This document shows, piece by piece, positions 1,657 through 64,000 of a stretch of DNA of 64,000 nucleotides. Position numbers and translations under genes: made by a program. The DNA is from Lophium mytilinum (Eukaryota), in contig MU004190.1 of NCBI GenBank assembly GCA_010093605.1, positions 1,633,599 through 1,697,598 of the forward strand. The letters are read 5' to 3'. Positions within the stretch are counted from its first letter, which is position 1. The number at the start of each line of letters is the position of its first letter. The notes under the pieces were generated by a model that was given only the letters and a program-made list of their open reading frames with translations, made no database searches and was not told the origin of the DNA.

Positions 1657-4012
1657 ATGCCTTCCGACAAAGATCTCTGCATCAATTGCAAAGCAATAAA
1701 CGTCGAGACTTTATCCGCTCCGGGAGGGTTTTGGGTGCGACGAGCAGATCTCCACCGTCAATGCTGCCTCTGCGCTTTCATTGAGAATAAGGTATTTAGA
1801 TTTGATAGAGGAGTGAAAGAGATTGCCCTTCGTTTGAAGTCTCATTTTGATGGGGCGGTCATGTTAGAGATGGGCGGGACCGAGTTCAACATTGGCACGT
1901 TAGAAGGTAAGGTTTCTCACATTTTCAGACCATAGCCATCAATTTGTACACATTCTACACCACTACGTGTGGTACTTGGGGTATTTCTAGATTTTGCAGG
2001 TATCGCCGCTCTCGAATCGTACGTCTTAAGATTCTGCTGTCTAGAGATGGCCTGGCGCGCTGGTTTTTTGTTCATATTGAAGAAGTCCTGTCTCAACTTT
2101 ATCTTCAAAACCTCATCGAGGCACTCAACACCATGGCGGATGTACGTACCGCAGGTGCTGATAAACAAGGTCAGTCACAGTGGAGATGGATATCCACTGC
2201 CATTTAACTTATCAGCTACCTACTGGGCAGGCTCCTCCTCACAGTGGTATTGGGCGTGCAAACGCCTAAACTTTTTACATCCCGTTTGCAATGTTGAAGC
2301 CTATAGATATTTACAGACTCATGGCCTGTAGCGCGGTAGTGTACAATGTCTGTTAGTATGATGGTAGCTTACGAGAAGTAGATGATCCAGCTACCCGCTT
2401 CAAAGTACCTGTCTACAGAAGGCCCACAAATACCAGATCTCCTGAGACATTTGCGATGGCTAAACGCTGGATCCAACAATGCGCCTCGAACCATGATTGT
2501 GACAGGGTTTTCAAAACCAACGTAAACTCCGGAATCCGCCCAAGTCGTCTTATCGACGTTTTGGCATTTGGTCTATCCTGCCTGGACGCCCAGTTGATTG
2601 ACACCAGGAGCCTAAGCCGTTGCCCTCAATACATCACCTTAAGTTATTGCTGGGGACCTCCTTCGTCGCACAGCTATACCACTACTCGCGCGAACTTCGA
2701 AGAGCGGCGAAGGAGGATCAAATACGAGGACCTTCCTCAAACCTTCCGCGATGCTATCACTATCACAAGAGAGATGGGAGAACGGTACCTCTGGGCCGAT
2801 GCAATCTGCATCATTCAACAAGATGAGGACGACTGGGAGGTTGAATCTAAAACAATGGGCTCGATATATGCTAACGCGCTGGTATCAATAGCAGCAGAAG
2901 ACAGCAAAGATAGCCACGGCGGTTGCTTCAGAGATATTACTGGACCAGAAATCCCGGACCTTATAAGATTAGAAAGCGAGGTCAGCTACGGTAAAACTAG
3001 TTGTTTGCTGCTATTCTATGATCACCTAAGCTTTTACACTCGTAACTTAAGCAACATCCCGCTTCGAAAACGTGCATGGGCTATGCAAGAGAGCATCCTG
3101 CCTCGACGAATCCTGCACTACACCGCGTCGCAACTATATTGGGAGTGCCGGAAAGTAGTATTGGCAGAGGATGGTCTACCTCGGTATGACGTGCCGCCAA
3201 ACGCCTTCTTTCTTCGCCTAAGGGCATTCTCCAATGCCTTTACGCCTAGGGACGAGTCAAAACCCATCACCGTGCAATCTTCATTCGTTTTATGGTACAA
3301 ACTCGTTCTTGATGACTACTTTGAAAGATTCCTCACTTTCCCCGAAGACGTGTTACCAGCCATTGCCGGCATTGCTACCTTAATTCACCGGTCACTGCAA
3401 TGCCGCTACATCGCCGGCATCTGGGCTGAGAACATTGGGTACGGATTGAGCTGGAGCATGCCGGTCGGCTTCGCGTCCCTCCCTCAACCGTCAACGTACC
3501 TGGGGCCCTCTTTCTCTTGGGTAGCGCGGTGTGAGCGTAAAAGCTACCCTCGCTACTTCAAATCCCCTGTAAAACTTCAGGAATCTCACGTCAAGCTCAC
3601 CGGCCCCGATCCGTTCGGTCGAATCAACGGCGCGTGGATTAGAGTCAAAGGGCGAATGAAGATTGCTCCGCGATTGCCTGGTACGAAGAGAGGCTCTCTA
3701 CCAAGCGGAGACCGGACTCGCTCGAACAAGTCAATTGTTCGAACCTCCATCGATGGACAGCTTTTGGTGGCTTGTTTTGATGGTGAGCACCCCGCGTCGT
3801 CCATGGAAGAGTGGTGCTACTTCGACCTCGGAGATGAGAAACACCTTATACTTGTACCGAAACGCGACGAAAATCACAATGGCTGGGTACGAGTTGGACT
3901 TGTCGAGCCGTCGGGCGAGTACTTGATTGGTAAGTCAGACGGAGAGATACATACTATCGAAGGGTGGTCATGGGATGATGGGTGGGAAGAGAAGGACATC
4001 ATCATCTATTAA
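1657..4012 (+). CDS. HET-domain (heterokaryon incompatibility-like) protein
   Basis: ORF 2456-4012 has RLIDV, YITLSYCWG, LPQTFRDAI, YLWADAICIIQ, MGSIYANA and RAWAMQE motifs. Probable first exon 1657-1906 (LCINC...CCLC) spliced to ~2382 (DDPA...). Confidence 0.9.
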
Positions 4013-8898: not shown

Positions 8899-11800
8899 TA
8901 TCTTGATAGCAGTGTTGTAAAAGCAAGGCATACGAACCCCATCACCCTTGGTTGAGGTCCTATAGCATGCTGTTAGCCATCTAGATGCGACGGAACGTGC
9001 TTTGCTTAAGCTTACGGCACGTCATATGGCAGAAACGCAACGTGGAGAGGCTGGGTTCGCAAGTCGGCCATTGTAAAGAGGGGATGGTGAGAACAGCGAG
9101 GGCAACAACGACGAGCAATATACACATAACACCGCGGTCCATGCCGAGTGAGGCGCGAAAGATGAAGAAATCAGTTACCTTTAAGCCGCCGGTAGGGACG
9201 CCCACGCCGCATGCAAAGAAGCGCAAGCCCGCGGCGAACGAAGCCTCGAGACGCCGCTCCCGCTCCGAGACCCCACTCGAGGACATTGACGGTGGCTAGC
9301 AGGATTACGTACCCCGGTGATGACTTGCTGAGGCCTATCAGCCCGTACAACATAGTGTCTATAGCGGTAATGGTGATCCTTAAGCCAGATGGAATTACAG
9401 ATTTCTAAGTACAGTGTTGCAAATTGAGGTTTAGCAGACCTGTCAGATATGGCACCGTATGGGGTCCGCCAGGGTATGCTTGATACCTTGTAATTTCAGA
9501 GCGCAGTGGATTACAGATTAGAATCGAGGTTCCAAATCTTCGAATCGCGGTGCGGCTGGAGTAGTCCGTAGAAGTGTTGCCTTCTTCTTATTCCACTTCT
9601 TCTTATTCCTCTTCTTCTTATTCCTCTTCTTCTCAATCCTCTGTTCTTAATTCTCTTCTTCTTGTTTCAACCGTAATATGCTACTTCGCTCTCTTTCCAA
9701 GCAGTCTCCATTCTTCTATCCCTTCTTGTTCTCATTGTAACCCAGTCTTCCACTCGTCCCCTTATCTGTATTTAACCGATGCACATCTCGCATACGTGGA
9801 TCCCTGGGGCTCGTTCGAAGGCAGCTCGGAGGTAGATACTGTACCTGTGGCATAAGTTAGTCTCAAAACACTCATGTCTTTGAAAACAACCCCGAGGGCA
9901 TCTGTAATTCTGGGTTCTGAGCATCGCAGCATGTGGATGATGCATGGCAAATATCAAAACTTCTGAGAGCAGCTTAGCATCTCGATTGTTCGCCGGTGAC
10001 GCCAGCACCCTGTTAGTAGACTGGATGAACGTCCCGCACGTTCAGTGATTATTATCGTGCCCAAAGGCGTTCATTGTCTGTTCGAATCCTCGTCTGAGCC
10101 CGTGTGCTTGTCACAGTTTCACCAAGAGCTTTGAGGGGTCTTGCTGGCGTTGCGGGCCGGATTCCACCAGCAGTTTAGTTCGAAATGGGACGCCGAGTCG
10201 TCTGCCTTGACGAAACTTCAAGTTGCTACCCCTACCTGAGTCTGTCAGTTTCCTGACATGCCACATGCCCAGGCTTGCCAAAGCCAATCTAGAGTGACTC
10301 TAAGCCTCGGTGGGTTGGTATTTGTCCCAGGCCCTTTGCGTCTAGGTGTTTCCTGGCTCGAGCCCCACGGGTTCCATAAGGTTTCCCTATTCCAATGTTC
10401 TTCCTGTTGATGCCTGCCGACTTTCCGCTTCGCCTATGACTTTCCGCCTAGACTTAGGCCGCCTGGCGTTTTCCCACTGACAGGGCGTGTCCGATTGTCT
10501 CCAGGAGTATGTTATGACTTGATCTACTTCGTCGTTGTACCACAGTGACGCGTACCCTCCCCAGTAAGAACAACTGCTGGTCTGATTGAAGGACTAGAAC
10601 GTCTGTCTTGGTCGAGGGCCTTCCGAGGGCTCGTGGCGGAGTTTCAAGGTTCGAAGGTTGTTTGCCTCGCCGTCTGCGTTGGGTGCCTGTCTTAAGGAGA
10701 GAAAGGAGCTACTCCTACCAGGTTGTGCCGGGAAGACTGGTCTGATTCAAAAAAGATGAGTTCCTTGACTTAAAAGACAGTACAAGAGCACCTGTTACCA
10801 CCAGTACCAGTATGTTTCCGACGCTTTCGAGGACGCAATCGCTACGAAAACAAGTCCACACTTGTCTCTTCTTGCTGGCCCGGTCCCTGCTTGTTCTAAA
10901 GTTGTCCTTTCGGGATTCCAGACTGTTGCTTCTTCGAGAAGAACACAGGTATCCGTTTGTATGTGCATCAGGGCGAGGGGTGGCCGAAGGCAGGAGGAGG
11001 GAGGAGGAGGCTGGTATGGGAATGCTAAGGCAATCAGCCGGGGGACTCTATGAAGGCTCGAGAGAACCGAGGCCACAGAGAGTTAGCAGATCTCGAAAGA
11101 GCAGATCCCTTGGATAGTCTTGCCTTCATGATGCCTCCTTGTCGCCTCTGTTGACTGGGCGAAGATGGACAGGGACACAATGTTCCCTGCCCGAGGATGC
11201 AGCCTTACTTAAGGCACGTATTGGTGACCTGCCTATCTGTTTCGCCGCTTGTCTCTGTCTCTCATTGTTGCCACGGGAGCACGGAGGCTCAAGGCCGTAG
11301 CAATGTCTCAAGCAAAGTCACTGGTGGCCTAGGTAGCCCGAGAATGAAGAAAGGGGGTGTTTGCATTATGCTACACTATCTAAAGGCTATATAGTGAACA
11401 CAATGAGGGTGATCTCTCAATGCGTTGATGCTGTGACGCTAACTCGGTTGTGCGTGGCTTGCCCTTTTGTTGTGGTCTTCTGTCGCCTTTGCTTCTCCCT
11501 CATCTTCTCTCCATCCTACCCACCACCATCATCACCAACACCACCAGTACTTGCCTATTCACTGCCTCAAGAGCTTCTAGACCTGTTCCAGATCCTCTGC
11601 AGACCGTCAGCGTAAGTCTTCAGGTGCTCTCTGAAGCATCCTGAGCCCGTGGTGTCACTAGCCGGCGAAAAGTCTTCTCCGCCCCTTCTTCACCTCCCTC
11701 ATCCCCAACACCATCTGAAAACTGCTGCACGCCGTCTCAAAGCTTCTACGAGTCCCACTGACCTTCCACAGATGCGTCTTGCAAGTCTTTCGACGCCGTT

Positions 11801-12345
11801 TGGCCTCGTGTCGGGGTTTGTGGGCGAGGTGGCCTCCATCGCCACCTCCGCTTCGCACTTGACCAGCCCATCACACCCAGCATCGAAACACCACAGCAAG
11901 CAGTGGCTGTAGCATCTTTCGATACCTCCGAGCCTCCACTAACGTGTGCTGTAAGTCTCTCGGCGTGTTAGGGACCTTTCCTGGCTCTGACGTTTGTGGC
12001 TTCGACCGTGGCTTCTCCGCCCCAGACTCATCCACTTCATCACTAACAACCTCCAGCCACCTCCAGGCACACCTCGCTCAGCACTGTTGATCTCCCGGAG
12101 GCCTCGTTGGCAGGCTGTGCCTCCGCTGTAAGTTTGGAGTTTCTTTGACGGCTCTTTGCCTTGGCGACATCTCACTCTTTTTTCATCAACACCATCCATC
12201 AACACCATCAACACAACAAAGGTCGCTTCGTCCTCAGTGCTTCGAGGCTTCAGCGGTGCTCCGAAGCACAAGTTCTCTCTACCCAGTAAGTGTACAGCTC
12301 TTTCATATTTTTTCAACCTCTTCCCATGCCCACCACAACAACACT

Positions 12346-14236
12346 TGGGCTGCGTTCTCGAGGGAGTCGTGCTTCACCCACGTCGACTCCTTAAAAACCA
12401 GCGTAGAGTAACAAACATCGCCCGGAGCTTGTTCAGCGGTCGCTTCTTGCTGGACTGAAGCAATGAGAGCTGGGTAAGAACCGTTCGCCAACAGTCCGGT
12501 GTCGAGCGACGCAGGATGGACCACAGCCGCCCGAGGGAGGACCTGGCGGGCAGGATTCGGCTTGGTAACCCGGGTCCGAGTAAGGTTGTAAACGTCGTGA
12601 TTGCCAGTCGCGGCGTAGGTGTCCTTGCTCGTACATCTCTTGACCCTTCCAGCATTTGTTGTTACCGTTTTGCACATGTCTTTTTGTCCAAGCCTTCGCT
12701 AACTTCATCATCGTAAGGTCCGCTTCCCTCGGCGTCGAAGTTAGGACTGCTTCATGCTATTGCGTCTTAAGAATTGGTACGTTCAAGTCTTTCTTTCAAC
12801 TCTTGTCAGCCACTCTACCCTCCCAGCCCCTCCCATCGTACAGGCAAGGTACGGACACTCGAGCCTGGCTCTTTCATAGCCATGAAGCTCTCATGCCTCT
12901 TGCCGAGATCGAACAAACAAGTCGCCGCCATGGTTCCCTGTCCGATCATAGTTCGCCGCAACGCGGTTATTTAGTGTAGTATTGTGCCCCTCGGGGTTAT
13001 GAGCCGGGGCAGCGGCTGTTCTCTTCAACGGCGGCGACGACTGCGGGATAGTTACCCTGGCATCAGCGCTGCTCCGCATTCGATGGCGCCAGTAGGTGGT
13101 CCTAGTCAAACATCTTTTGCTAATCTTTCTGCAGGCAGATTCCTCCCTTCGACTTCTCGCGGCACCTCCACAACCTGCTTCCTCCTCTCTTACAACCTCT
13201 TTCGAATGCCGAACGCGGTACGATCATTAGCACTACCTTCTTCTTTAGCCTCAAACGGTTTTTGGCATACGAGCGCGGCTCCTTGAGAACATTCCAAGTG
13301 TCTCCTACAAATACCAAGCACCTGTCGTCACTGGACGAGGAAATGAAAGCAACATGGCATAACATAATGGATGTGGAGTATTTGCGAGATTGAAAGTGTC
13401 TTCGACTTGTAGGTCGGCATCAAATCGAGTTCTGGGGTACTCGGAGCTACTGTCAAGATGGATTCGTCGTCCCCTCTCATTTCGCCATCTTTGGGTTTCA
13501 GCATCAGGCAAGAACAGTCGAACGATCTTGGCTTCCTCTTAGCGTGGTTCGAAGATTGCTTTCCAAGAACAAAAAGAAGTCGCCCTCTGGTTCCCGTTCG
13601 CTCGTAGGTCGCTGTCCCTACCTCTGTTGGTGGAGTGTTTGTCTGCAATATTGCGCTGGCGAGGCAGCCCGCGCCTGAAGACAGCTGTAAGAGGGCGACA
13701 GACGCCAAGATAGTCACCCCAGCATCAGCACTGCCTTGCATTTGATGGTGTTGGAAGGCGGTCTTGGCTCGGACATATTTCTTTCGGTTTGGCGATCTCT
13801 TCATCAAATGCACGATTGGTTTCGTGGTTGCTGACAGAAATGCAGACACTAGAGATCTGCTTCCTAGGTAACTGTCATCGGTTCTGTCACAAACCTCATC
13901 ATGGTAAGTTCTTTCCGCTTATTTTTTCCTCTCGTTTTTCCTCGACGATCGCCCTCTTCAATCAGGCACTTCAGCCCACCGAGCCCGACTCTAGTAGCTC
14001 TCGCTCCGGGTATTGTAGGTCAAGATCAAACCAAATCGTCGTGCTCAGCGGGGTGTTGGAAGCAAGTAACCATGGGGCGCAGTCGCGGTCTTGGTCGGTT
14101 ACGCGTACTGGGGCAGAGCAGGGCCTTCCTAGATGGTCACAAGAGCACGTACGAGCGACGGATGAAGGGAGTACCACGGCTTCAGCTGCCTGCTCTGCTA
14201 GAATGGGGTCTGATGGGCGGCCCAACTCGTACATCT
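12346..14236 (+). ncRNA. Array units 1-4 (most diverged; apparently one per intron)
   Basis: Ends gctcgtACAtct (12633), gtcaaACAtct (13110), gctcggACAtat (13773), actcgtACAtct (14231); each followed by a branch point and AG. Confidence 0.55.
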
Positions 14237-15358
14237 TTCTCTTTCTGCGATCTCCTTGGCTCTTTTCGATGGGTTCCAGTCGTCCTTGACTTTTGCTAAC
14301 GATTCTTGCAAAAGCACTCCTTCGGGCTATCGGCCTGGATTGCGACTTCCTCAGCACAATTTCCACCTCCTCTCCCAGTTGTGTAGTCTTGTAAGCCTCT
14401 TTCTCATTTCTCTCTTCCACTCCCTCCCATTTTTCTATTGACGTGAATTCGACTTGCTAACTTTGCCAAAGATAATTGCCATTCGAACCTTGCTCTGTGG
14501 CTGAGATCCTGCATATTGTCAGCGCAACTACTGCAGGTACGTTTTTCAGTCTTCTTCTCCTTCCCATTTCCCACTGTGATGGTCGTCTTTAAACACCGTG
14601 GTTCTGCCGAGGCTTGATGATATATACACATCTTTCTGAGACCCGAATCTCTCCGCTATCTCGATTGCAAGCTTTCGAGTGATCAACTAGCTAACTTCTC
14701 ATCAGCAGTGACGACCAGGTAAATATAGGGATGCCCTCAATCCACTACAAGTACGTTCTCCGATCTCTTTTGCTCTTTCCCAACATCCGGAAATGATGAT
14801 TTTGTATATTGAAATTTCTCATGCTGAGGCCTGATGACACACACTACTTTCTGAGACCGGACTTGTCGCTCATTTTCATTTGCTGCTCTTTGAATGAAGA
14901 TCCCGCTAACTCTTGAAAAAACCAGGAATCATCATTCCTTGTGAGGTGGCTGTGGGCCAATTCTTCTTTACCTCTGCACTGTTTCACCCATCGTGACGGT
15001 GGGCAGAGTCTCGGAGGGACTCAAGTCTACCGCAGGTACGTTTATTGACCGTTTTGCTTTCTTCATTCTCCCATTCTCCCATCCTCCAACTATGATGATT
15101 CTTCGAGGCTGTTGCTGAAACATGATGATTCTCGATTCTCTGAACCTGCGATTCTGCGACCTACTTTTCCAGACAATCTTTGCGCGGTCTTGGGCTAATG
15201 CGTGAGAAGTTAGGGATCTTGACATTCGACATCTTTGAAATGTGTGCGCTTTCGCTCTTTTGTCGACTGCATTTAAATGGTACATGGCATATCCTCTCCG
15301 ATGGCACCTTCTCCACCCATTCCACTCCATCCGATATCTCCGGTGCTCTCCAGAAAAC

Positions 15359-16162
15359 GGCATCGCACCGTCGATCGTGGTCGGCTTCTCCATAGCCTTC
15401 TACAGGCCAGGGTGCCGGAGATCAACGAAAGGCTGCGTAGGTAGTAGAAGAGGACCGGTCGCGAGATTCGTTTCTCAGCAGAGCCCGTCGGACCTGCGCG
15501 CGGTCGTGACGCTGGAGCAATACCTTCATTCAGGGTTTAAAACTAAGGATGATCATGCACCCTCCCATGGATGAATCGAGAAGATTTACCCTGCCGGTGG
15601 CTCCAAGCTCATACATCTCCCTTTTTTTTGTCAAGATTTCTCTCATTTCGCCCACTTCGATTGGCGTCTCTTCGAACATTGACAGACAATGACACTAACC
15701 ACACAATAGTACGTCTTTACCGACAGTGCTCTCCGGGAATCTTCGAAAAGCTGAATGTGAACATCGAGGATGAGGATTATGGTATCAATATCGACCTCTT
15801 GGCCCTCTGAATCCGCTTTGCTTCTCTTCTTCTCCCTTTCCGATAAATCATTCCTTCCTCCTCTGACCACTAGGCCGCATTTGCAGGCACGCCCGTATCA
15901 CACCGAAGCAGCTTCCTCATAGCCTTCTTCACGTGGGGCGTGCCGAGATCAAATTTGTCGCATGCAGTGGCGACGGGTCGACTACTCGAATGATTGGGAC
16001 AGCAGGCCATGACGAGGTTCGTAAGGAGCCCTGAGCCCTGCATGTTGACGTGACGCTGGGGCTTACTACGTCTCCCCTGCTGCTGTGGAGATCTGGAATG
16101 GCAAAAGAGAAGATGTTGCAAACCGCCACCAGTATTAGTTGGTCGCCTCAGCTCATACATAT
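15359..16162 (+). ncRNA. Array units 5-6
   Basis: Basal stems ggcatc/ggtgcc and ggcacgccc/gggcgtgcc, each followed by AGATCA (canonical ANANNA). Both end gctcatACA. Confidence 0.65.
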
Positions 16163-16323
16163 TTTCAAGGTTGGTTACTCTTCTTAGTGCTTTGATCCAA
16201 GCTTATCTTCCCTTCTTCTTTCTTTTCTTCTTCTTTTTGTTTCCTAGAGTATACGCCCAAGAATCAATCTTTTCCCGTTTCTTTCTCTTCTTGGGCAGTT
16301 GAATTCCCTCATTGAGATGCTCA

Positions 16324-17298
16324 GACACCGCCTTTACTCCGAACCCAGCTTCCTCCTCATAGCTCCGTTCCAGTAAACGGTGCCAAGATGGAGCTAGTCG
16401 CTCACAGTGGCACGCGGTCGACGATGGCATCGGAGCGGGAAGTAGGCCTAGGGTGTTTTGTCTGTCGGCCCCGAGACTTAGAGCTTCGTAAGAGCCTTCC
16501 ATGCCCTGTGAGTCGACGTGACGCCAGATGCTACCGCACCTTCCCTACTCTTCGTGGAGGCCTACCTGTTTCAGTTCACTTCACGGTAAGACGGGCTTCT
16601 GGCTCATACATCCTTTCGCGTGTTTTCCTCTTTCTTCTCATGTCTCTTCTAGAGGTGATGTGCTCAGACACCGCCGCACTCCCGAACCCAGCTTCCTCAT
16701 AGCTCCGTTCAAGTGGGCGGTGCCAAGATGGAGCTAGTCATTCGCAGCGGCGCAGGGTCGATGATGGTCTCGGAGCGGGAGGTAGGCCTAGGGGTTTGCC
16801 TAGCGACCCTAAGACTCAGAGCTTCGTAAGAGCCCCAGTGGCCCTGTGAGTTGACGTGACGCCAGATGATACCACACCTTCCCTACTCGCTGTGGAGGCG
16901 TGAGCGAGTAAACGTCACAATTAAGCAACTGGTATTCTGGCTCATACATCTTTCCGCCTCTCTCTCTCTTTCTCTCTCTCTTTTTCTTCTCATGTGACTT
17001 CCAGTGGTCATGTGCTCGGCACCGCCTCACTCCCGAACCCAGCTTTTCATAGCTCCGTTCAGATGCGCGGCGCCAAAATTGATCTAGTCGCTTGCAGTGG
17101 CACGGGATCGACGATGGCATCAGAGCGGGAAGTAGGCCTAGGGAGTTCTGAAAGTCGCCCGAGACTTAGAGCTTCGTATGGAATTCCAGTTGCCCTGTGA
17201 GTTGACGTGACGCCAGAAGCTACCACACCTTCCCTGCTCTTTGTGGAGGCGTGAGCAATGTTTACCCACCGGCAAGTGGTATTCTGGCTCATACATAC
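16324..17298 (+). ncRNA. Array subfamily A (3 close paralogues, ~345-bp period)
   Basis: Near-identical ccgaacccagct..tcatagctccgttc and gacgtgacgccaga...ttctggctcatACA blocks. Confidence 0.7.
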
Positions 17299-17765
17299 TA
17301 CAACACCGATTCGATCTTGGAGAGAACCCGTTTTCGGATCTGCCGTTGGTGAGTTTGTGGGGTTTTCTTGGACGAGCGGGCCTGACTTCGTATCTAGGTC
17401 GTATCAACATCACACGAATGTCTGATGTTGGGTGATAGCTGCGTGTTTCTCGTTCATGTTCTCTTTCTTACGCCGTTCTTGCTCGGCAAGACATCTCGTT
17501 CACAGCTTGACGTATTCGGCAGTCAGGCGTGGTCGACGCTACTTCCTCATAGCCGCGGCGTGGGCAATCCTCAGACTCTTGGTACCACCGTGCAGAATCC
17601 CTGGCCTTGTGGGTAACCTAGATGCTCACATTCCGTCGCCCCGAGAACGACTGGAAAGGCCAGCAGCTGGACTCGGAGAACAACGCTGGACTGATGAGTA
17701 AGTTTTCCAAACTCTTCCTTTCCATCCCCTTCATTCTTTTCACGCCCTAAATCGTCTCAAACCCC

Positions 17766-18236
17766 GGCACCGCCATCTCTATACGCCGACTACCCAATAG
17801 TCGTGCGCCGGCTGGCGGTGCCAAGAGGAAAACCATCGGCCTGCGTTGTACTTGACCATTGCCGCAGTGGCTGCGTTCTCTTGACGCGCAAGACCATGAC
17901 GCTGGCCTAACCCAACTCCCCTGCACCGCAAGGCCCAGCTCAAACATCTTTCTTCCTGTGGGCTTTCCATTGCTTCATCCTGAAAGTTTGACGGAGAGAC
18001 TGACTCAAAAGCAAATCCAGATTCTTGAATGTTTCTATTTTTCTGGAATCCTGGCACCGCCGTCTCTATGCGCCGACTTCCTCATAGTCGTGTGCCGGCT
18101 GGTGGTGCCAAGAGCGAAACCATCGGCCTGCGTTGTACTTGACAATTGCCGCAGTGGCTGCGATCTCTTGACGCGCAGGACCGTGACGCTGGCCTAACCC
18201 AACTCCCCTGCACCGCAAGGCCCAGCTCAAACATAT
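17766..18236 (+). ncRNA. Array subfamily D (2 short ~184-nt paralogues)
   Basis: Highly similar pair 287 bp apart; both end aggcccagctcaaACA. Confidence 0.7.
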
Positions 18237-18443
18237 CGACTCTCTAGGAATTTTCACTGCTTAAGTATAAGAGCAGGCAGAGAGACAAACTTAATACTAG
18301 GTCCTGATGAAAAGGCGATTGAAGGTCCTCTCAAAGTCTCACACAGCTAAGCAAGTTTTCTCTTCTTCAGCTCCACAGCTCCACAGCCCACTCAACTTCT
18401 CGACATCCGGTTCTGCGCGTCAAGACGAACTCTTCCAACATCC

Positions 18444-20774
18444 GGCCCCATTCTCTTCATCCGAGCCGGCTTCTTCATAGTCGTGCTTTCGATAGCGGGG
18501 CGAAGAGTGAACTGTATCGTGGTTGATGTCCGACGTGTTTCTGGCTGGCGTCTGAGACATCTTCCCGTGCAGGTCTACCGACGCTGAGCACTACCTCGAC
18601 TCCGACTAGATGGAGAATGGAGCTGACGCACTTGTGGCAGCGGTCAAATGGACGCTCAGCTCAGACATCTTTACTACCCACCCTTGTTTACATCTTCGAA
18701 ACGACGGAATAGCGAAGCTGACAGTTGTTGTAGGTTTTAGGACGCAAAACCAAGTGTTCAGGTCTTGGAGCAGATCTTCGAGAGCTAGCTCTGAGGGGAG
18801 CGCAGCATGGAGTCCCATTTGATGTAAGCTTTCCTGCATCTTGTCTTTCTCCTTCGTCAAGAACCACCCCATGTCGGCACCGCTCCCTCCCTCCGAGTCG
18901 ACTTCCTCGTAGTCGCATGCTCTCGGGAAGCGGTGCCAAAACTGATTTCCGACCTGCGTTGTGGAGCGGGCCACCGCCATGCGGTTCTCAAGAGCCTTTT
19001 ATCCCTCGTGGTGTCTATGACGCTGGTGCAATACCCGACTCCGGATGTAATCAATGGAGAATCGGACTTGAGTTAAAGTGTATTATGGACGCCCAGCTCA
19101 CACATCTCTCTTTTCTAGGCATAGCTGCTTCTTCAGGGCTCAGGGATAGAAGTCGGGAGGCTGACAAGGTGAGTAGGCTCTGGTAATTCGTTGCAGCCCG
19201 AAAGCAGTGTAAGTCTTCCTCCGTCTCTTCCAATTCCTCGGCGTGGCTATCTTTCCATTTCCTCTTCAAAATCCAATCTTCACGTCCCTCGGCACCGCTT
19301 CCTCACAGCCGTTTTACTCATAGCCGTGTTCGCTCGGAGCGGAGCCAAGATTGAGAAGCTTCTCGCGTTGTGGCGGAGGGTCGCCTCGCAGAAGAAACTT
19401 GCGTGGAGCCGGAACCCTCTTGGCCCTCGCAGCGAACTTGACGCTGGTGCATGAACCCGACTCCAGAGATGATCCATGAAGTATCGGAATCTTATCTTAC
19501 GGCCTCCAACGATGGACGCCCAGCTCAGACATCTTCCATCAATCCTCGCCCTTTGCGAAAAGAGTGATGAGCTCAAGCTGACGAGGAGAAGAGGTTCCGA
19601 GGTTCCGATGAGCGTGTGATGAGAGATAGGATACTCCGCTGGTCGGCAACGATGCTCTTGCAAAGACACAGGTGAGCCGAATTTCTTGCGCATCTTCAAA
19701 CGCATCTTCTACCCAACCGCACCTTTTTTTTCCAACGCTTCCGGCACTGCCAATATTCCGAGCCAGCTTCCACATAGCTATGCTCTCAATGGCAGCGCCA
19801 AGATTGATATTGTCATCGTGTGTGGCGGAGAGCTCCACTAGCTAGCTACTAGTTGGAGGCTCTCTTACCCCTCACGATGATGTGACGCTGAGGCAAGTTC
19901 CACGACTCCGATAGCACGACCAATGGTCGAGAACTGCACTAGCTATCATATCAATGGAGGATCGTGATATTGATGCGCATGGCCCCCTGGACGCCCAGAC
20001 TCATACATATTCTACCGGTGCAACTTTCAGACTGAAGCTGACGACTCGAGCAGAAACCTCACGCGCAAAGTAACTATTCCCATCTCTTTTCTTACTCTCA
20101 ACCACTCTCCTTCGACCTTAGGCACTGTCAACATTCTGAGCCAGCTTCCTCATAGCTATGCTCTCAATGGCAGTGCCAAGATCAATGTTATCATCGTGTG
20201 TGGCGGAGAGCTCCACTAGCTACTAGCTGGAGGCTCTCTTACCCCTCACGATGATGTGACGCTGAGGCAAGTTCCGCGACTCCGATAGCATCGACCTTGG
20301 TCGAAGAGTGGCTAGCTATCATCAAATGGAGGATCGGGAAAGAAGATTTGCATACCATGGACGCCCAGACTCATACATATTCCGCCAGTGCAACCTTTTA
20401 CGTTGAAGCTGACGAATGAAGCAGAACTCCATTGCGCACCGTAGCAATGCTCCCAAAGTATGTATCCCCTTCTCTTTTCGTTCTCTTCCAGCCTCTTTTC
20501 TGAGCCTTTCGGCACTGTCAACATCCGAGCCAGCTTCCTCGTAGCTATGCTCTCAATGACGGTGCCAAGATCAAAAGATATTACACGCGTGTGGCGGAGG
20601 AGCTCCACTAGGTGGAAACCGTCTTAGCCCTCGCGGTGATGTGACGCTGAGGCAAGTACCCCGACTCCGATAGCAGAGACCCTGTCCGAAATGAAACAAC
20701 AAATAGCTATCAAATGGAGGATCGGGCGACCCAAGGAGGTCAGGATTTTCATGGACGCCCAGACTCATACATAT
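18444..20774 (+). ncRNA. Array subfamilies E/C (6 paralogues)
   Basis: Ends ggacgcycag(a)ctca(t/g/c)ACA. The last three share ggcactgYcaa...gagccagcttcc..tagctatgctctcaatg..gYgccaagat. Confidence 0.7.
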
Positions 20775-21447
20775 CCCATCAATGCAACTGCTTTTGCAGA
20801 TCATAAAGACAACGTTGGAGCTGACGAATCGAGCAGAAATCCAGATGCTGAAGACAGTGGCAGTTCGGGGAGCGTTTCGCCTTCTTCGCTTCTCCTGAAA
20901 GGTTTTTGTTCTCTCCGGAATACCCGTTCGGCGCGCTCCACACCGCCGATGCGGCGTTCTTGTCACGGCTCAGATGCCATGAAAAGGATACGAGTGGACT
21001 CTTCAGCCTACATTGAGGCGTCCATTGAGCTAATGAGTATGTTTCAACTCGACGAATAGGTTGCGAATGGGTGCTGACTTTTCGTACTCTGTATTTAGAG
21101 AGACGGTATCTGGAGCCAAGAAGGAAGGTAGGTGCAGGTGCGCGATGAGAAGTTGCTTGCCGGTTTGGACGCTTGCTGATCTGAAAGCGTAGGAAGCAAT
21201 CAGTAGCACTGTCAACAAACATTTTCATGCCCCCAGTCACTGCGATCCAGCTCGGCATTCCAGGCTCTTTCAAGACTCTTTTTCTGTCTCAAATACCTTT
21301 TGTCCTGGAGCTTAGTCGATTTTCGTCGATGGCTCGTCTTTCCACTCGAATTTCACCACCGCGGTACCCTAGCACCATCGTGGCACCGTTCAATGACCTC
21401 AATCTACTCATGGCAATATCTACCATGATCAAGCTACTGGTTCCAAC

Positions 21448-23892
21448 GGCACGCGCAGCCGAGAATGTCGGCTCCGGCAATGGCAGCTTCGACTTGTGCA
21501 CGCCAAGATTGATAACATCGTTCTCGCTAGTGGGTCGCCTCTCTCGGGAGGTGGGCGTCTCTCGAGAGGAAGGTTGGATTAAACATAAAATCGATGTCAC
21601 GCGCCCCCGTTCGAGGGCCACCTCATGCACGGGGGTGTAAAACGCAGCCGTAATCGGAAAAAAGCGAGACCGAGCGGGATTTGAAGTTACCACGTCTTCA
21701 GCACTGCATCGGCTTGATGGAGACGGTGAAGGTATTCTGACCCGTACATATTCTTTCGGTCGCAAGCTGCATAGCCAGCCTAGTCTGGAGCTTCGAGACC
21801 AGATCACGAAGGGGCTGTATGAAGTAGATGAAGAAAGAGCTGGAGGATCAAAAGTTCTGGTGAGTGTTGGTTTCAGCCTCCCCGTCATGGATTCCCTCCA
21901 AATCGGACCACGGCACGCGCTAGTCGAGTATGTCTGCTCCGGCCATGGCATTCTGGACTTTTTTCCGGCGCACGCCAAGATGGATGATTCGTTCTCGCTG
22001 ATGGGTAGTTCGTTAATGGGCTGTTGGATTTGAGTTCAGTAAAAGTTTTACCCAATTGCCCAGTGCAGTGGTACCTCCGTAATCGGATGTCGTCAGAACT
22101 CAACGAGCAAGACTCGGGTGACAAGCGAGGACGAGCGGGATTTGAAGTTACCACGTCTTTAGCACTGCATCTGCTTGATGGAGATGGTGAAGGTGTTCTG
22201 ACCCGTACATGCCCTGTCGATCACAGGCTGCCTGGCCTAGCGCTAGAGCTTCGAGGCCAGAGACCGGATTGCTAACGAGGCGTCAAGCTAGATGAGAAAG
22301 AGCTGGAAGATCAGAGGTGCCGGCATTACCTTGGCCTTCGAGTCGAACCTCACGACACGCGCCGGTCGGGTACGTCTGCTTCGGCCGTGGCGTCCTCGAC
22401 CGTTTCCGCGCACGCCAAGATCGAGAATTCGCCCTCGTCGGTGGGCAGTTGGATTTGAGTTATGCAGGCAGCGAAGCGACCGAGACCCGAAGGTCCAGTG
22501 CAGTGGTATTTCCGTAATCGGAAGTTGTCAAAACTCAACGAGCATGCCTCGTCTCAGACAACAAGCGAGGGCGAGCTGGATTTGAAGTTACCACGGACTC
22601 AGCGCTGCACAGCCATCAATGGAGCCGGTGAACGTATTCTGACCCGTATATATCACCCTATTCTCTCGGCCACGGAGTCTTGGGCCTAGCGCCGATGCTT
22701 CGAGGCTGAACTACTAATTTCCACAGATGCGCCGGCAGAAGGAGTCGCGGGAGGAGAATGGCGATCGACACGAAACCAGGCACGCGCTAGTCGAGTGTGT
22801 CTGCTACGGCAGTGGCATCCTCAATTCGCAAGCCAAGATTGATAGGTCGCCCTCGCTGGTGGGATATTGGATTTGAGTGGGAGTGGATTAATTGCGATGG
22901 AGTCACCCAGTGCAGTGGGTAGATCAACCGTAATCGGAAGTTGTCAATTACCCCACGAGCATGGCGAGACTCGGACAACAAGCGAGGGCGAACGGGATTT
23001 GAAGTTACCACGGATCCAGCGCTGCACAGCCTTCAATGGAGCCGGTGAAGGTGTTCTGACCCGTACATACTTCTTTTCGACCTCGAAGTCACCAGCTAGG
23101 CAACGGCGCCTCGGGGTTGAGCTACTAACCCCTTACAGATACGGTCAACCAGAGGCATAACCGCGGCACGCGATATTTGACTTGTCTGCTTCGGCGGTGG
23201 CATACTCAACATACGCACGCCAAGATTGATAGTTCGTTCTCGCTGGTGGGCTGTTCGTTCTCGCTGGTGGGCTGTTGGACGCGGCAAGACTCAACACGGG
23301 GAAGCACCCCAGTGCAGTGGGAGACGAACCGTAACCGGAAGTCGGTTTCGGTAACGACAACGCGAGGACGAGCGGGATTTGAAGTTACCACGTACTCAGC
23401 ACTGCAACGCATGATGGGGACGGTGGAGGTGTTCTGACCCGTACATCTCTCGCTACGGAAATGCCGGGCCTGGTGTTGGCCCTTCGATGCTAGCTTGCTA
23501 ATCATTCGCGCCTACGCGACGGTGGATTTCAGACCTGCGATTCTCCGCTCAGGCTGGTATTAGTCTCACGGCACGCACCGATTGAGTATGCGGCTCCGGC
23601 GATGGCATCCTCGATTTGCACAAGGCGCACGCCAAGATCGATCATTTTTCTCTGCTAGTGGGCTCCGGGGGGTGAGTTCCAGCGGGTTAGCATAAGGGAG
23701 TCGGCAGTTCCACACAGACCACTGGACACCCAGTGCAGGGGGATAAGATCCGTAATCGGAAGTCGTGCGGAACTCGGTGGGTTGATGGCTTTTTTGACGA
23801 CGAAGGCGGAGACGAGCGGGATTTGAAGTTACCACGGATTCAGCGCTGCACCGCGTAATGGAGCCGGTGAAGGTTTCCTGACCCGAACATGT
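21448..23892 (+). ncRNA. Array subfamily B (6 paralogues, ~390-460-bp period)
   Basis: Shared gcgggatttgaagttaccacg...cagcRctgca...ggtgaaggtRttctgacccgtACA (ATA in one copy). Confidence 0.7.
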
Positions 23893-24768
23893 TCTATCGC
23901 GTTGAATGCGATGGTGTTGATGCTGAGGGACGTTGGAGGTTAGGATAAGGTTGGAGTTGAGTATGTTAGCGTTTACCGTTCCGAATTCCTTTTGCTGGTT
24001 AGATCAATGCTTACGTACTGACGTCCCAGCTTCAAGGGGCGTCTTAGATCCTTGACTACCTCCCCACGACCTATGCTAGAGTAGATTTGATTCTGGGTAT
24101 TTATCGAATAGATCTGTCAACCTTGTCAGCTTCCCCGTCCAAATGTTATGCGCAACTTTCGGTCCGCTTTCGCTCTGCCCGATATTATGACGCCCACCAA
24201 TCATAGATCTAAAGAACGTTGTATGTCCTTTGAAAGGTGGCGGGCTTCATCGGGGGTCCCTCCAATGGCGTGGTATTGCGCGCTTGATGCTGGGCTATGG
24301 CCCATTGTCATCCAATCCCGCGGAGGTTTGCGGTCCAAAGGTGTGTCAATTATCCTGCTCCTCGCTGATCCACAGATTCCCGTTCCGTATTTTCCCCTCT
24401 CCCTCCCTCGATGGCATGCTTCACGCAGTCATCCAGTCAGTCAATAGTCTAGGTAATTCGGTCTGATTTGAAGCGGTTATCCAAAGAAACTCCCTCTTCG
24501 GCCCTCCCCTCGTTCGATCAGCATGCTCCAAACCACACCAAACTCTTTACAGCTTTTCCCGACCCTCATAGAGCTGGAGATTATATCAGCTTTGCAACAC
24601 AAAGGGCACTTCGCTGAAGCATACTGTTCCATATCCGATATCCTCCAATGATCAACCGCACGCGCGCAGAGTCAGACACACCAAGGTAGCTCGCAGCCCT
24701 GGACTTCCGCGCAAGAACGTCGCTAGGCTCGGCTGATATAGAAACTACCACGATGTAGTAGGATTCGC

Positions 24769-48012: not shown

Positions 48013-49246
48013 TTAGTGCGTTGAACTTCTAACAGGAATCTTACACAACACACTTAGCTCTGCATAGCGTACGATGAACACTACTGAATGACTAGGTATG
48101 TGACGCAGTTTCACCAATGCTTCGCGACCTTCAATCCGAGCAGAGGCCCGTTTCCAATAGTAGCTTAACGAGAACCGTTCTCTCCAATCTCTTGCGCGTA
48201 GCAGTGAAGTTCTGCCCCAGTTGTCTTTGGCGTTGATATCTATATCTGTTTTACCATAATTTAGCAGAAGTTTGACAGTAGCTAAGCGTCCTCTTTCGGC
48301 GGCCCGAAATAGCGGCGTCTGATTTTGATGGTCCCGGCAGTCAAGATGAACTTTCCCTGTGTCCAACAAGACTTGGATGACAGGTGTGTGCCCTCTCTCG
48401 GCTGCGTATGACAGTGGTGTCCGGCCGAAACCGTTATCGGAATTGATGTCAACCTTTCCCGTTCCTATCAGTAGTCTAACCACAGATACTTGGCCAGATT
48501 CCGAGGCTAAGAAATGCGGTGTTTGGCCAACACTGTTCTTGGAGTCGAGTCTAACGCCGCCTCTCTCGAGTAATAGTCTCATCACTGAGTCAGACCCATG
48601 GACAGCTGGCCATTCAAGTACTGCTTGTCCGCTCCCCGTATCATTATCCCATCGAATCAAATCAAGCGCCCCGGCTGATATTAGTCGAACTGCCACGGGA
48701 ACCCCTTCTTTTAACGTCGTGTACATCATCGGTGTCCGTCCAGTATTATCCTTTGCGTGAACGTCCGCTTTGCCCATTTGCAATAGTAGATCAACCACAG
48801 CAGCGTGCCCATATTGGATTGCCCAATGCAGCGGCGTCTTGCCACGCTCGTCCGCTGCATTGACATCGAACTTGCCTGTTGCGAGTAAGAGCTCAACAAT
48901 GGCTTCGTTCCCGCCGCGAGCAGCGAAAGGTCACTATCCCGGGTGTTGTTCATTTCTAGAATCAACATTGACCTTGCCATTTGCCAAAAGTAGCTTAAGG
49001 ACTTCTGTACTCCCCTTTTCAATAGCGCAAGACAGCGGTGTCTGGTTGGTTATGTCCTTTGCGTGAACATCAGCCTTGCCGGTTGCCAGAAGTAGCTCAA
49101 CGACGAGTATGTGCCCTCCCCTGACAGCAGCTAGCAGCGGCGTCTGGCGCGAATGATCCTTTGAGTCGACAGCAATCTTTCTAGTGGCAAGCAACAGCTG
49201 AACTACGCCGTCGTGCCCTTTTTCAGCTGCCCGCAATAGAGGCGAT
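48013..49246 (-). pseudogene. Ankyrin-repeat protein, 3' remnant with frameshifts, truncated by the TE block
   Basis: Repeated TPL..AA..GH..VV.LLL.TGK.D motifs over three frames; upstream sequence is replaced by the AT-rich block at ~49247. Confidence 0.85.
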
Positions 49247-49899
49247 CAGGGCTACCCTTTAATCACTGAATTGCCCCGTTAATTAATAGTGATTAAAGGC
49301 TTAGCAGGTATTAATAATTAATTAAGTCTTTAAAAAAGTTTTAATTACTTAATATAAAGAGGCCTAATTAATTACTAATTAATATCTATTAAAGTTAGAT
49401 TTAGTATTTAGATTTAGTATTATAGTCTAGCTTAAAAGTCTATAATTCTAGGCCTTTTATTAGTCTATCTATATTATAAGCTAACTAACTAGCCTATAAC
49501 TATATACTTACTATACTTTATATACTTACTATAATCTATATACTTACTATAATCTATATACTCTCTATTTTCTATAGCCTTTCTATTTTACTTAGCTATA
49601 TAATTAGTAAAATATAGAGTTTTTATAATAGCTTTTAATATAATAGTACTACTACTACTATTCTTATTACTATTACTATTACCTCTATATTTATTACTAC
49701 TATTTTTATTATTATTATATCTTCTACTATATATAGTTATTATACTTAATATTTTTAGTACTATAATATATACCGCGCTAATTCTCTAGCTTTTTCTCTA
49801 GCTACTACTACTACTAATAAATATAATATTCTACTCTATTCTAACTACCCTTCTATAGAGGTACTAAGAAAATATAATATAATTAAGCTTATAGTATCT

Positions 49900-51400
49900 T
49901 AGAAATATAACCTAAGAAGAGCCTCTAGGCTCTACTTAAGGCCCTTTAGATAATTATATATAGTCTTAAAGCCCTATAAGTAGTACTAGTAGTATTATAG
50001 TAGATTAATATATTATAACCTCTAATATACTACTTCTCTAGAACTAATAATAATACTAATACTACTAATAATAACTCTAATACTATCTAAAGCCCTCTTA
50101 GAATGCCTACTAAGGTATTTAAAATACTTTTTATAAAGCTTAGTATATATAGGCCTACCTATAGAGTAAGCTATCTACTCTAATAAAAATAGACTAATTC
50201 TACTAGTTTATCTAGGGGTTTATTAGACGCGTTATTAATAACCTATTAAGTATATTAGCTAAGCTATACTAGAAACTATAGATATAATTAATAAGAAAGA
50301 TAAAAAATATAAAGAAAGAGATAATAAAAGAGGTATATATATTATTATTATAAAAAAAAATATACGCTATAGTAGTAGTAGCTATTAGAATAGAACTAGA
50401 GGCTATAGGCTATAGTAAGACTAAGTAGGCCTATAGTAAAACTATAGAAAATAGGTTATATATAATATAGCCTTTAGAGGTTTATAAGATTACTATCTAT
50501 ATTAAAAATAATAATAAGTAAGCTACTACTAGAAAAGATACTAATATAACTATTATATAAAAGCTCTAGGCTATAGAACCTTTAAATATATCTAGAATAT
50601 ATAGTATTAGAAAGCTCTAGAGTAGAGATATAAAGGCGTATATAGCTAATAAAACTATAAAAGTATTTTTACTAAAGAAGAAGAAATAGATAATAGTACT
50701 AGGTAAGTTAGTATATATATAATAGCCTATAGTACTTATAGAAGTATATAGAGTATCTAAAAATATAAATATAAGTAGCTTAGAATTTAGAAATACTATT
50801 ATTAAGGATAGTGCGCTAACTAACCCTAGCCTTATAATTAAAAAAATTATATAGAAGAATAATAAGAGTCTTAAAGTAGCTAGAAATAATCTAAACTACT
50901 ATACTAGCTTTATTATTATTAGTATCTATATAGAGCTAATAGTAAATATAGCTATTAAATAAGAACTTACTATAGATAGACGCCTACTTATAGCCTTCTA
51001 GTATAAGGTAGAATTTATAGCTATATAGTACTTTAAGTACTAAGAATATAGATATATAGCTAGGTACTATAAGAAGAATATATAGTGCGCGCTATATATA
51101 GAAGAATATAATACCTAATAGTATAAAGTAATAAAACTAAAAAAGTATATAAACTATAAGAGAAACTACCTAGTATATAGTATAGAATATAGTATATAAA
51201 AAGGGGCCTAGCTATATACCTTAATAAAGAGATAGACTATACTAACTTACTATAATACTAGAGAAATAAGCTAGAATAAATACTAGGCTTAACTAGAAGA
51301 ATATATAACCTAGCTATTATAAAGTAAAAAGAAAAAGATAAAAGATAATATACTATATAGTAGTAGTATAGAACCTAGCTCTATACTAGAAGTACTTAAA
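49900..51400 (+). mobile_element. RIP-degraded gag-like ORF with CCHC zinc knuckles (LINE/Tad1-like ORF1 or related)
   Basis: Reverting RIP changes at ~51025-51190 gives QCFKCQ.YGHIA..C, C..C...H and C.NC...H....C spacing. Confidence 0.5.
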
Positions 51401-52031
51401 AAAGTAGTAGAAAGACCTTTATTAAATACCTAGATTAATATAGACCTAAAATAGCCCTCTATTAATAGTATACTATATACTATCTATAGTTTTTTATAGC
51501 CTTTTTATTTAATATAGCCTTTTATATAGACCTTAATTTAGTTCTTCTATTTTATAGATTAGTCTATCTATTCTATAGCTTAGCTTTTACCGCCCTTACT
51601 ATTTATATAGGCTACTTAAACTATAGTATATAGAGATATTAATAGACTATTATAGTTTATATAGTAGGGCCTTATATAGGTACCCTTCTTCTAGAAGAAT
51701 AATATTAACTACTAGCTATATAAGAAAGTAAAATAGGCTAGTATAGATATAAATATAGATTTTATAGACCTTAATTAATAATAGAATAACCTAATAAACT
51801 TACTATTATATAGTATAATATTAATAAAAGCTATAATACTTAGAAGAAGTTTCTTAAAAAGGTAGAGATTATCTAGCTCTAGCTACTAGTACTAGCTATA
51901 TAAAAACTATAGAAAAATATCTAAAAGTATACTATACTATATATAAAATTATATTATCTACTATATAGAGAAAGCCTAAATACTAAAATATATATATATA
52001 TATTAATAAGTGCCTAGACTTAGGCTAGTAG

Positions 52032-63800: not shown

Positions 63801-64000
63801 ACTTAAATATATAAGATAATATATAAAAGTAAAAAGAAATCTAAGATAGTAGCTAGATAGTTTCTATAGAAAATAGACCTGCTACTCTACCTCTTAATAG
63901 TAAGAGAGATAGAAAAAGAATAGATTTAGCTCTTCTACTTAATACTATAGCTCTACTATTACCTATAGCCTTACTATAACTAATAGCCTTATTATTACTA

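Follow-up and report, generated by a model that had tools for sequence, protein, structure and literature searches.

A tandem array of 23 H/ACA-like units in a putative non-coding host gene of the filamentous ascomycete Lophium mytilinum

In a window of 64,000 nucleotides (nt) from Lophium mytilinum (assembly GCA_010093605.1, contig MU004190.1, positions 1,633,599 to 1,697,598 of the forward strand; all coordinates given here count from the first letter of this window), we found 23 head-to-tail units that resemble H/ACA small nucleolar RNAs (snoRNAs), all on the plus strand and together covering about 12.3-23.9 kb. Unit lengths range from 187 to 326 nt when the ACA plus three bases (ACA+3) is taken as the 3' terminus. 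Group alignments and alifold gave them a common plan, in which a 5' hairpin is separated by one base from an A-N-A box, and an extra internal hairpin that is long and variable, a 3' hairpin and an ACA come next, with the last pair of the 3' hairpin sitting 0-1 nt before the ACA in the aligned groups. Twenty-two of the units are paralogues of one family, while the remaining one, unit 1 (ACA at 12633), has a distinct sequence on the same plan. The array itself is a real observation, and the H/ACA class of snoRNAs is its best explanation. It lies in a putative non-coding multi-intron snoRNA host gene on the plus strand (11385..24030, limits approximate).

Unit 1 spans 12345..12638 (box AGAGTA at 12405), its 5' limit having been set by eye, and the others were assigned to groups B to F. 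Group B holds units 2 (12840..13115, box AGATCGA at 12906, ACA at 13110), 3 (13504..13778, AGAACA at 13566, ACA at 13773) and 4 (13962..14236, AGATCA at 14023, ACA at 14231). It is followed by group C, with units 5 (15356..15618, AGATCA at 15419, ACA at 15613), 6 (15883..16162, AGATCA at 15946, ACA at 16157), 7 (16321..16613, AGATGGA at 16386, ACA at 16608; situated in a 351-bp tandem repeat at 16318-17256), 8 (16664..16951, AGATGGA at 16726, ACA at 16946) and 9 (17015..17298, AAATTGA at 17076, ACA at 17293). The shortest units make up group D, i.e. units 10 (17763..17949, AGAGGA at 17824, ACA at 17944) and 11 (18050..18236, AGAGCGA at 18111, ACA at 18231). Group E comprises units 12 (18441..18670, AGAGTGA at 18504, ACA at 18665), 13 (18873..19107, AAACTGA at 18939, ACA at 19102), 14 (19288..19534, AGATTGA at 19348, ACA at 19529), 15 (19740..20010, AGATTGA at 19801, ACA at 20005), 16 (20118..20380, AGATCA at 20179, ACA at 20375) and 17 (20508..20774, AGATCA at 20568, ACA at 20769). 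The array ends with group F, consisting of units 18 (21445..21751, AGATTGA at 21506, ACA at 21746), 19 (21909..22212, AGATGGA at 21978, ACA at 22207), 20 (22351..22653, AGATCGA at 22418, ATA at 22648), 21 (22776..23070, AGATTGA at 22836, ACA at 23065), 22 (23162..23448, AGATTGA at 23223, ACA at 23443) and 23 (23567..23892, AGATCGA at 23635, ACA at 23887).

When a covariance model was built for the 5' hairpin and box from the 22 paralogues, with unit 1 left out, it scored 37-67 bits on these units (57.2 bits for unit 2), all on the plus strand, which are training matches by construction; no other match above 12.6 bits was found on either strand of the 64 kb. Only 42-49% of the alignment columns are identical overall among the paralogues, and the boxes are intact in 22-23 of the 23 units. 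Paralogue identity is 0.75 inside the units, vs. 0.50-0.52 in the 60-nt flanks and 0.33 for random 60-mers. Similarity peaks from the 5' hairpin to ACA+3 to +6 and does not extend with the splice signals. The initial annotation, which had been made from the sequence alone, stated that similarity collapses a few nt after the ACA. In this wording it is not confirmed. The ACA-anchored information is close to zero from +9, and some pairs of paralogues fall to background at the unit edge, but the flanks as a whole keep the identity given above, and recent duplicates remain alike outside the units. The stretch 17520-17600, between units 9 and 10, holds the family word CTTCCTCATAGCC and has no matching box, ACA or covariance-model match; it may be a relic of a unit.

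The 22 positions that had been listed as ACA all read ACA, and the one listed as ATA (22648) reads ATA. When the 23 units are anchored at this box, C is found at -5 in 22 and at -3 in all of them, the letters A, C and A themselves in 23, 22 and 23, T at +3 in every unit and T at +5 in 19. The conserved 3' context thus reads C-U-C-N-N-ACA-U-N-U. Further upstream, GG at -15/-14 from the ACA is kept in 19 and 16 units, respectively. In the 22-unit alignment the hinge box begins 1 nt beyond the final pair of the 5' stem, and at its positions 1, 3 and 7 an A stands in every one of the 22 aligned units and also in unit 1 (23/23). Position 6 is A in 8 of the 23 units, giving a strict ANANNA, and G in the other 15 (ANANNGA), two of which start with AAA and not AGA; the earlier description of AGATCA in some units and AGAnnGA in most is thereby confirmed. 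In fungi, the sixth position of box H is reported to be the variable one, and variation in the ACA box to be rare and to affect its middle base (PMC5824354), which covers the ATA of unit 20. This unit also has one broken terminal-stem pair (UC at columns 15/90) and a G-to-C change in the conserved GAAGGU, and may be in decay. Alifold shows 5 invariant pairs by which, in each of the six F units, the box AGAU(U/C/G) can bind the GAUUU that lies at the 3' hairpin's 5' base (e.g. 21506-21510 with 21681-21685). Such pairing would complete a three-way junction in which the box is hidden; covariation is absent either way.

For the 5' hairpin, a structure of our own with 16 pairs (8 outer, 4 middle and 4 apical) was scored over 349 cells in 22 units. 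Of these cells, 75.4% are paired, vs. 33-39% when the partners are slid, and 59 are double changes, vs. 7-22 after sliding, with double changes found in 12 of the pairs. Neither the observed pairing nor the observed number of double changes was reached by any of 500 shuffles. The weakest 5' hairpin is that of unit 4, which has 4 of the 8 outer pairs. At the top of the non-F 5' hairpins stands a 7-nt apical loop, UCCUCAU in 4 of 16 and one base off in another 6 (e.g. 16692-16702 and 20145-20155), which may be a binding site. Its 4-bp closing stem varies with compensation (AGCU/AGCU, GACU/AGUC, GGCU/AGCC), and in the F units a UNCG-type tetraloop takes the place of the 7-nt loop.

Towards the 3' end, the hairpin of groups B and F (9 units, 18 pairs) is 89.5% paired vs. 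27-47% with slid partners and has 7 pairs with double changes, its structure having been derived from the same alignment that was used to score it. The last pair of this hairpin abuts the ACA. Groups C, D and E have instead a helix of the form UGA-c-GC.../...GC-UCA that ends 1 nt before the ACA in 12 of 13 units. In the E unit with its ACA at 18665 (unit 12), the automated scoring took the wrong 5' strand, and the cognate strand pairs equally well by eye. Five pairs of this terminal helix are invariant in all 13 units scored, and three inner pairs show compensated changes in the C subgroup whose three copies represent a single lineage. At the base of the F internal hairpin stands a helix of 10 pairs, 4 of them with double changes. 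Compensatory changes that maintain helices in this way require selection on the RNA fold after duplication. Beside this, unit 22 has a perfect 21-bp tandem duplication (2.1 copies, 23232-23276) in the basal strand of its internal hairpin.

The initial annotation had also placed the upper stem 15-16 nt from the box, in line with a 14-16 nt rule for H/ACA RNAs. In the 16 non-F 5' hairpins, this distance is 15 nt in 13 cases, 16 nt in two and 18 nt in one, and in the minimum free energy fold of the 3' hairpin of unit 1 a 9-bp lower stem and a 6+6 nt internal loop are followed by an 11-bp upper stem 16 nt from the ACA. The spacing thus holds for most non-F units in their 5' hairpins and for unit 1 in its 3' hairpin, but not for the 3' helices of groups B, C and F, and it ranges over 9-17 nt in the 5' hairpins of the F units. 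The B and F 3' hairpins are without an open pocket, their second helix ending 11-12 nt from the ACA. Here, the conserved UACC pairs with a downstream GGUG, which makes the hairpin a near-continuous helix, and the group C 3' hairpins are similar. Many internal loops of the 5' hairpins are small or closed. A clearly open loop (8+5 nt) is found only in the 5' hairpins of group E, where that of unit 16 lies 15 nt from the box. A reading of AAGUUACC and AGGUG(G) in the B and F units as guide arms was considered and rejected, as no ribosomal RNA (rRNA) site fits them and the two pair together in alifold.

The surroundings of the units carry intron-like signals. A TATA-like CTATATAG is found near 11385 and a first GTAAGT at 11612, splice-site and branch-point consensus sequences occur between the units, and the last candidate branch point plus AG is at 24017-24029. 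No open reading frame (ORF) of at least 200 amino acids lies on the plus strand between 6.4 and 35 kb. Downstream of 18 of the 23 ACAs, at a distance of 9-88 nt, there is a CTRAY branch-point consensus, in most cases GCTGAC or GCTAAC, with an AG after it; rough arithmetic gives a chance expectation of about one in four. On the upstream side, 9 of the 23 units have a 5' splice site of the GT(A/G)NG(T/C) type 49-79 nt before the 5' hairpin. Three box C/D snoRNA candidates, also on the plus strand, lie in neighbouring introns between units 4 and 5 (about 14575-14640, 14787-14861 and 15088-15145). Each of them sits in a small intron of its own, flanked by GTACGT and GCTAAC/GCTAAT...AG signals, and has C (TGATGA-like) and D (CTGA) boxes as well as D' and C' boxes. 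The second and third have weak Rfam C/D matches (24.1 and 15.1 bits, below gathering), and none of six 10-nt words from the three candidates occurs in the Neurospora C/D supplement (PMC2780460). As judged from these signals, the layout is that of a putative non-coding snoRNA host gene.

Possible targets were sought in heterologous rRNA. The small-subunit (SSU) rRNA, the 5.8S rRNA and positions 1-2002 of the large-subunit (LSU) rRNA were taken from contaminant fungal rDNA in bacterial assemblies, and the 3' part of the LSU from a fungal sequence on a metagenome contig that has group I introns; a full-length rDNA of non-fungal origin was added. Other sources were poorer, since the LR12 primer in viral contigs gave a 381-nt fragment only and the contaminated bacterial assemblies otherwise yielded 23S of bacteria or sequence of a non-fungal eukaryote with an SSU identity of 84%. 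Bipartite scans of both pockets in all 23 units yielded nothing beyond shuffled or reversed rRNA. Six of the 46 pockets scored higher than every one of their 10 shuffles, but in none of them did both arms fall where the consensus fold places the pocket. Sites common to several units were equally frequent with shuffled rRNA, antisense 11-mers to rRNA were not enriched (21 vs. about 18 expected), and a search for antisense rRNA sites of six conserved motifs gave nothing convincing. No site complementary to the apical loop UCCUCAU was found in the rRNA. Two individual matches were rejected. A 14-bp match of the conserved GCUUCCUC and AAUGGC to 18S U1738 has 'arms' 14 nt apart, and GCUU/...AG(C/U)(U/C) is a covarying stem that closes the loop; in a D-unit match at 18S U646, the 5' arm lies in the other hairpin.

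Two of the internal domains resemble 18S rRNA in the sense orientation. The insert at 13626-13655 in unit 3 agrees with SSU 1284-1314 in 27 of 31 columns, and that at 23288-23312 in unit 22 with SSU 1184-1208 in 22 of 25 (both in reference locus L017); for each, none of 1000 dinucleotide shuffles scored as high. An idea that every F unit carries such an insert was rejected, as an rRNA-like sense insert exceeds 100 dinucleotide shuffles in only 2 of the 23 units, and an antisense one in none. The inserts are therefore not a trait of the family. It could be imagined that the array encodes lineage-specific, amplified three-domain non-guide H/ACA ribonucleoproteins (RNPs), in which the internal domain is the working part and acts on pre-ribosomes or snoRNPs by mimicry of an rRNA strand, but we regard this as a long shot. 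If true, the mimic would be a decoy for the guides of those rRNA sites, or a competitor in helix formation.

The closest known counterparts are the H/ACA snoRNAs of Neurospora crassa, Nc ACA1-20, which are 136-309 nt long (PMC2780460). The array units share with them the order of hairpin, A-N-A box, hairpin and ACA, and are of similar size. The 20 cloned Neurospora RNAs mostly end in ACAU-N-U (PMC2780460), and a T is likewise invariant at +3 and frequent at +5 in the array. Several Nc ACA RNAs also start with GGCAC-type stems and carry GUGCC-R-AGA hinges (PMC2780460), another likeness to the array. Regarding gene organization, 16 of the 20 Neurospora H/ACA genes are intergenic and only 2 intronic, and all six snoRNA clusters described there are C/D only, most Neurospora snoRNA genes being singletons, which the authors connect with repeat-induced point mutation (RIP); intronic snoRNAs lie 41-60 nt from the 5' splice site (PMC2780460). 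The corresponding distance in the array (49-79 nt) is near this range. Unlike the Neurospora H/ACA genes, however, the array has 22 paralogues in one host gene, an added internal hairpin and no predicted target.

The host gene can be compared with hosts of the UHG/gas5 type, i.e. Neurospora clusters I-V, which are non-coding multi-intron genes with intron-borne snoRNAs at a set distance from the splice site, and with clusters of intronic snoRNA genes in rice and Drosophila (cited in PMC2780460). In contrast to the fungal UHG/gas5-like hosts described there, which carry only C/D snoRNAs and far fewer genes, the cargo of the array is mainly one amplified H/ACA family.

Two single snoRNAs deserve a separate comparison. 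The non-modifying H/ACA snoRNA snR30/U17 is needed for 18S processing and does not guide pseudouridylation; it has two conserved motifs for 18S recognition, on opposite strands of the internal loop of its 3' hairpin (PMC2664660). Like snR30/U17 (Nc ACA12), the array units are built from a 5' hairpin, an internal hairpin and a 3' hairpin. The letters of the two motifs are also seen in Nc ACA12. In the array, these words occur in a 5' hairpin, behind an ACA box and after the hinges of the D units, and never in the loop of a 3' hairpin. The other snoRNA is Nc ACA11, listed as Nc_HACA_11 with a match to snR11 (PMC5824354). Of 11 bases in the 5' strand of the B/F 3' hairpin, 10 agree with the Nc ACA11 3' hairpin, and by eye the UACC pairs with a downstream GGUG(G) in both; by chance, about 0.2 matches of a 7-mer would be expected in some 4 kb of text. 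The guide arms of the snR11 5' hairpin for its large-subunit site are absent from the array in a regular-expression search. A homology of the B/F 3' hairpin to Nc ACA11/snR11 may be suspected from this, and is to be seen as a lead and not as a result.

Taken together, we consider it fairly probable (about 0.6) that the region is a non-coding, multi-intron host gene of RNA polymerase II type with 23 genes of the H/ACA class and three C/D candidates. The boxes, the covarying hairpins that end at them, the ACAU-N-U tail, the intronic setting and the limits of conservation agree with what would be expected of H/ACA RNAs whose ends are set by the RNP. The H/ACA reading given in the initial annotation is supported in part, by the same boxes, hairpins, tail and setting, and its argument from the 14-16 nt spacing fits part of the hairpins only. 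Each unit would be released from a spliced or otherwise cut precursor and trimmed by exonucleases, which would be halted by the H/ACA proteins Cbf5, Nop10, Nhp2 and Naf1 (the last later replaced by Gar1). Trimming would stop at the base of the 5' hairpin with the A-N-A box and at the base of the 3' hairpin with the ACA, and the trimmed RNA would keep the ACA plus about three bases. The copies would have arisen by tandem duplication, and since the majority of the hairpins are near-continuous and lack an open pocket for a guide, and the rRNA scans gave no target, most of the copies are probably orphan, non-guide or fast-evolving H/ACA RNAs. The family is thus probably a real, amplified and orphan H/ACA set.

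A number of results weigh against this reading. Only 8 of the 23 hinge boxes are strict ANANNA, and most hairpins are without an open pocket. When all 22 5' hairpins were aligned together, RNAalifold gave no common fold, owing to a lack of homology of the F rows in the upper part. The contiguous stem next to the ACA has a mean maximum length of 5.52, vs. 5.49 for 1102 control ACAs, and the cognate terminal duplex is only slightly better than the non-cognate one (-14.3 vs. -13.1 kcal/mol). Five units, including three assigned to the 351-bp tandem repeat (ACA at 16157, 16608 and 16946), are without a branch-point consensus within 100 nt. The arrangement is therefore not uniformly one unit per intron, and some units may share an intron or be cut otherwise. 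Four scans of rRNA from other fungi, in which variable regions are not represented, gave no target above shuffled or reversed rRNA. Lastly, no Rfam family reaches its gathering score in the whole window, and no Rfam H/ACA family is matched at E up to 10 in 10-27 kb.

The missing targets are open to another explanation, namely that the units are ordinary pseudouridylation guides with targets outside the rRNAs tested, e.g. in the organism's own expansion segments and spacers, in parts of the LSU, in small nuclear RNAs (snRNAs) or in other RNAs. The 5' hairpins of group E, which keep their open 8+5 nt loop exactly 15 nt from the box, would suit such a role, as would the textbook 3' guide hairpin of unit 1 and the GG retained upstream of the ACA, and it is also true that the rRNA references were heterologous and that the targets scanned were rRNA. 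Yet the four scans gave nothing above shuffled or reversed rRNA even for the conserved core, which heterologous rRNA does represent, and antisense 11-mers are about as frequent as expected. In addition, loop sequences differ between close paralogues, and the 3' hairpins of groups B, C and F, like most 5' hairpins, are near-continuous helices, all of which makes guide function of the ordinary kind an unlikely, if conceivable, account of the array.

In another reading, only one or a few H/ACA genes are functional, and the tandem copies made from them are for the most part pseudogenes in decay, from which no RNA accumulates. Unit 20 with its ATA and broken terminal pair, unit 4 with half of its outer pairs, the highly variable internal loops and middle domain, and the lack of a target found would all be in keeping with decay. 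This is hard to reconcile with boxes that are intact in 22-23 of 23 units while fewer than half of the columns are identical overall, or with helices kept by compensatory changes, which calls for selection on the fold after duplication; moreover, the ATA is a known tolerated variant (PMC5824354). Decay on this scale consequently seems improbable to us. We find it very improbable that the units are a repeated structured intron element, introner-like or splicing-regulatory, with ACA and AGA kept for other reasons or by common descent. The position of the units in or between introns and the absence of an Rfam match would fit such an element, and so would the five invariant pairs between the F box and the GAUUU at the base of the 3' domain, which would hide box H. 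Similarity is, however, highest from the 5' hairpin to ACA+3 to +6 and does not follow the splice signals, and the order of hairpin, A-N-A, hairpin and ACA-U-N-U, the 15-nt spacing on the 5' side and the neighbouring C/D candidates fit a snoRNA host.

Contigs of run X1 contain a few stretches of about 200 nt from the array, which are identical to it, of low depth and without a splice joint. Two other contigs of this run, 698 and 2403 nt in length, contain a 3' hairpin of the F type, with 4 differences and other flanks (cf. 23356-23406 and 21716-21749), and loose ends in the run show other GGCACCGCC-type copies. These copies show that the organism in question has more members of the family at other places.

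Outside the host gene, the window has the GC-rich genes of a filamentous ascomycete. A 551-codon ORF is found at 2357-4012 on the plus strand, for which the nearest protein clusters are ascomycete HET-domain proteins. Beside the gene-rich part, the block at about 49000-64000 has 23-30% GC and many short AT-rich tandem repeats, and looks like repeat DNA degraded by RIP.

The fungal surveys describe H/ACA genes as present mostly in one copy and with a transcription of their own, and see RIP as what keeps paralogues in check (PMC2780460). In the literature searched, covered mostly at the level of listings, we found no such H/ACA array in a filamentous fungus. An ORF-less host with 22 diverged paralogues shows that families of the H/ACA type can expand in a filamentous ascomycete. 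The array thereby offers a natural series for following the birth of H/ACA RNAs, the loss and gain of guide loops and the addition of domains, as well as for recognizing which sequence features the H/ACA proteins really need, as exemplified by the ANANNGA hinge and the hairpins without a pocket.

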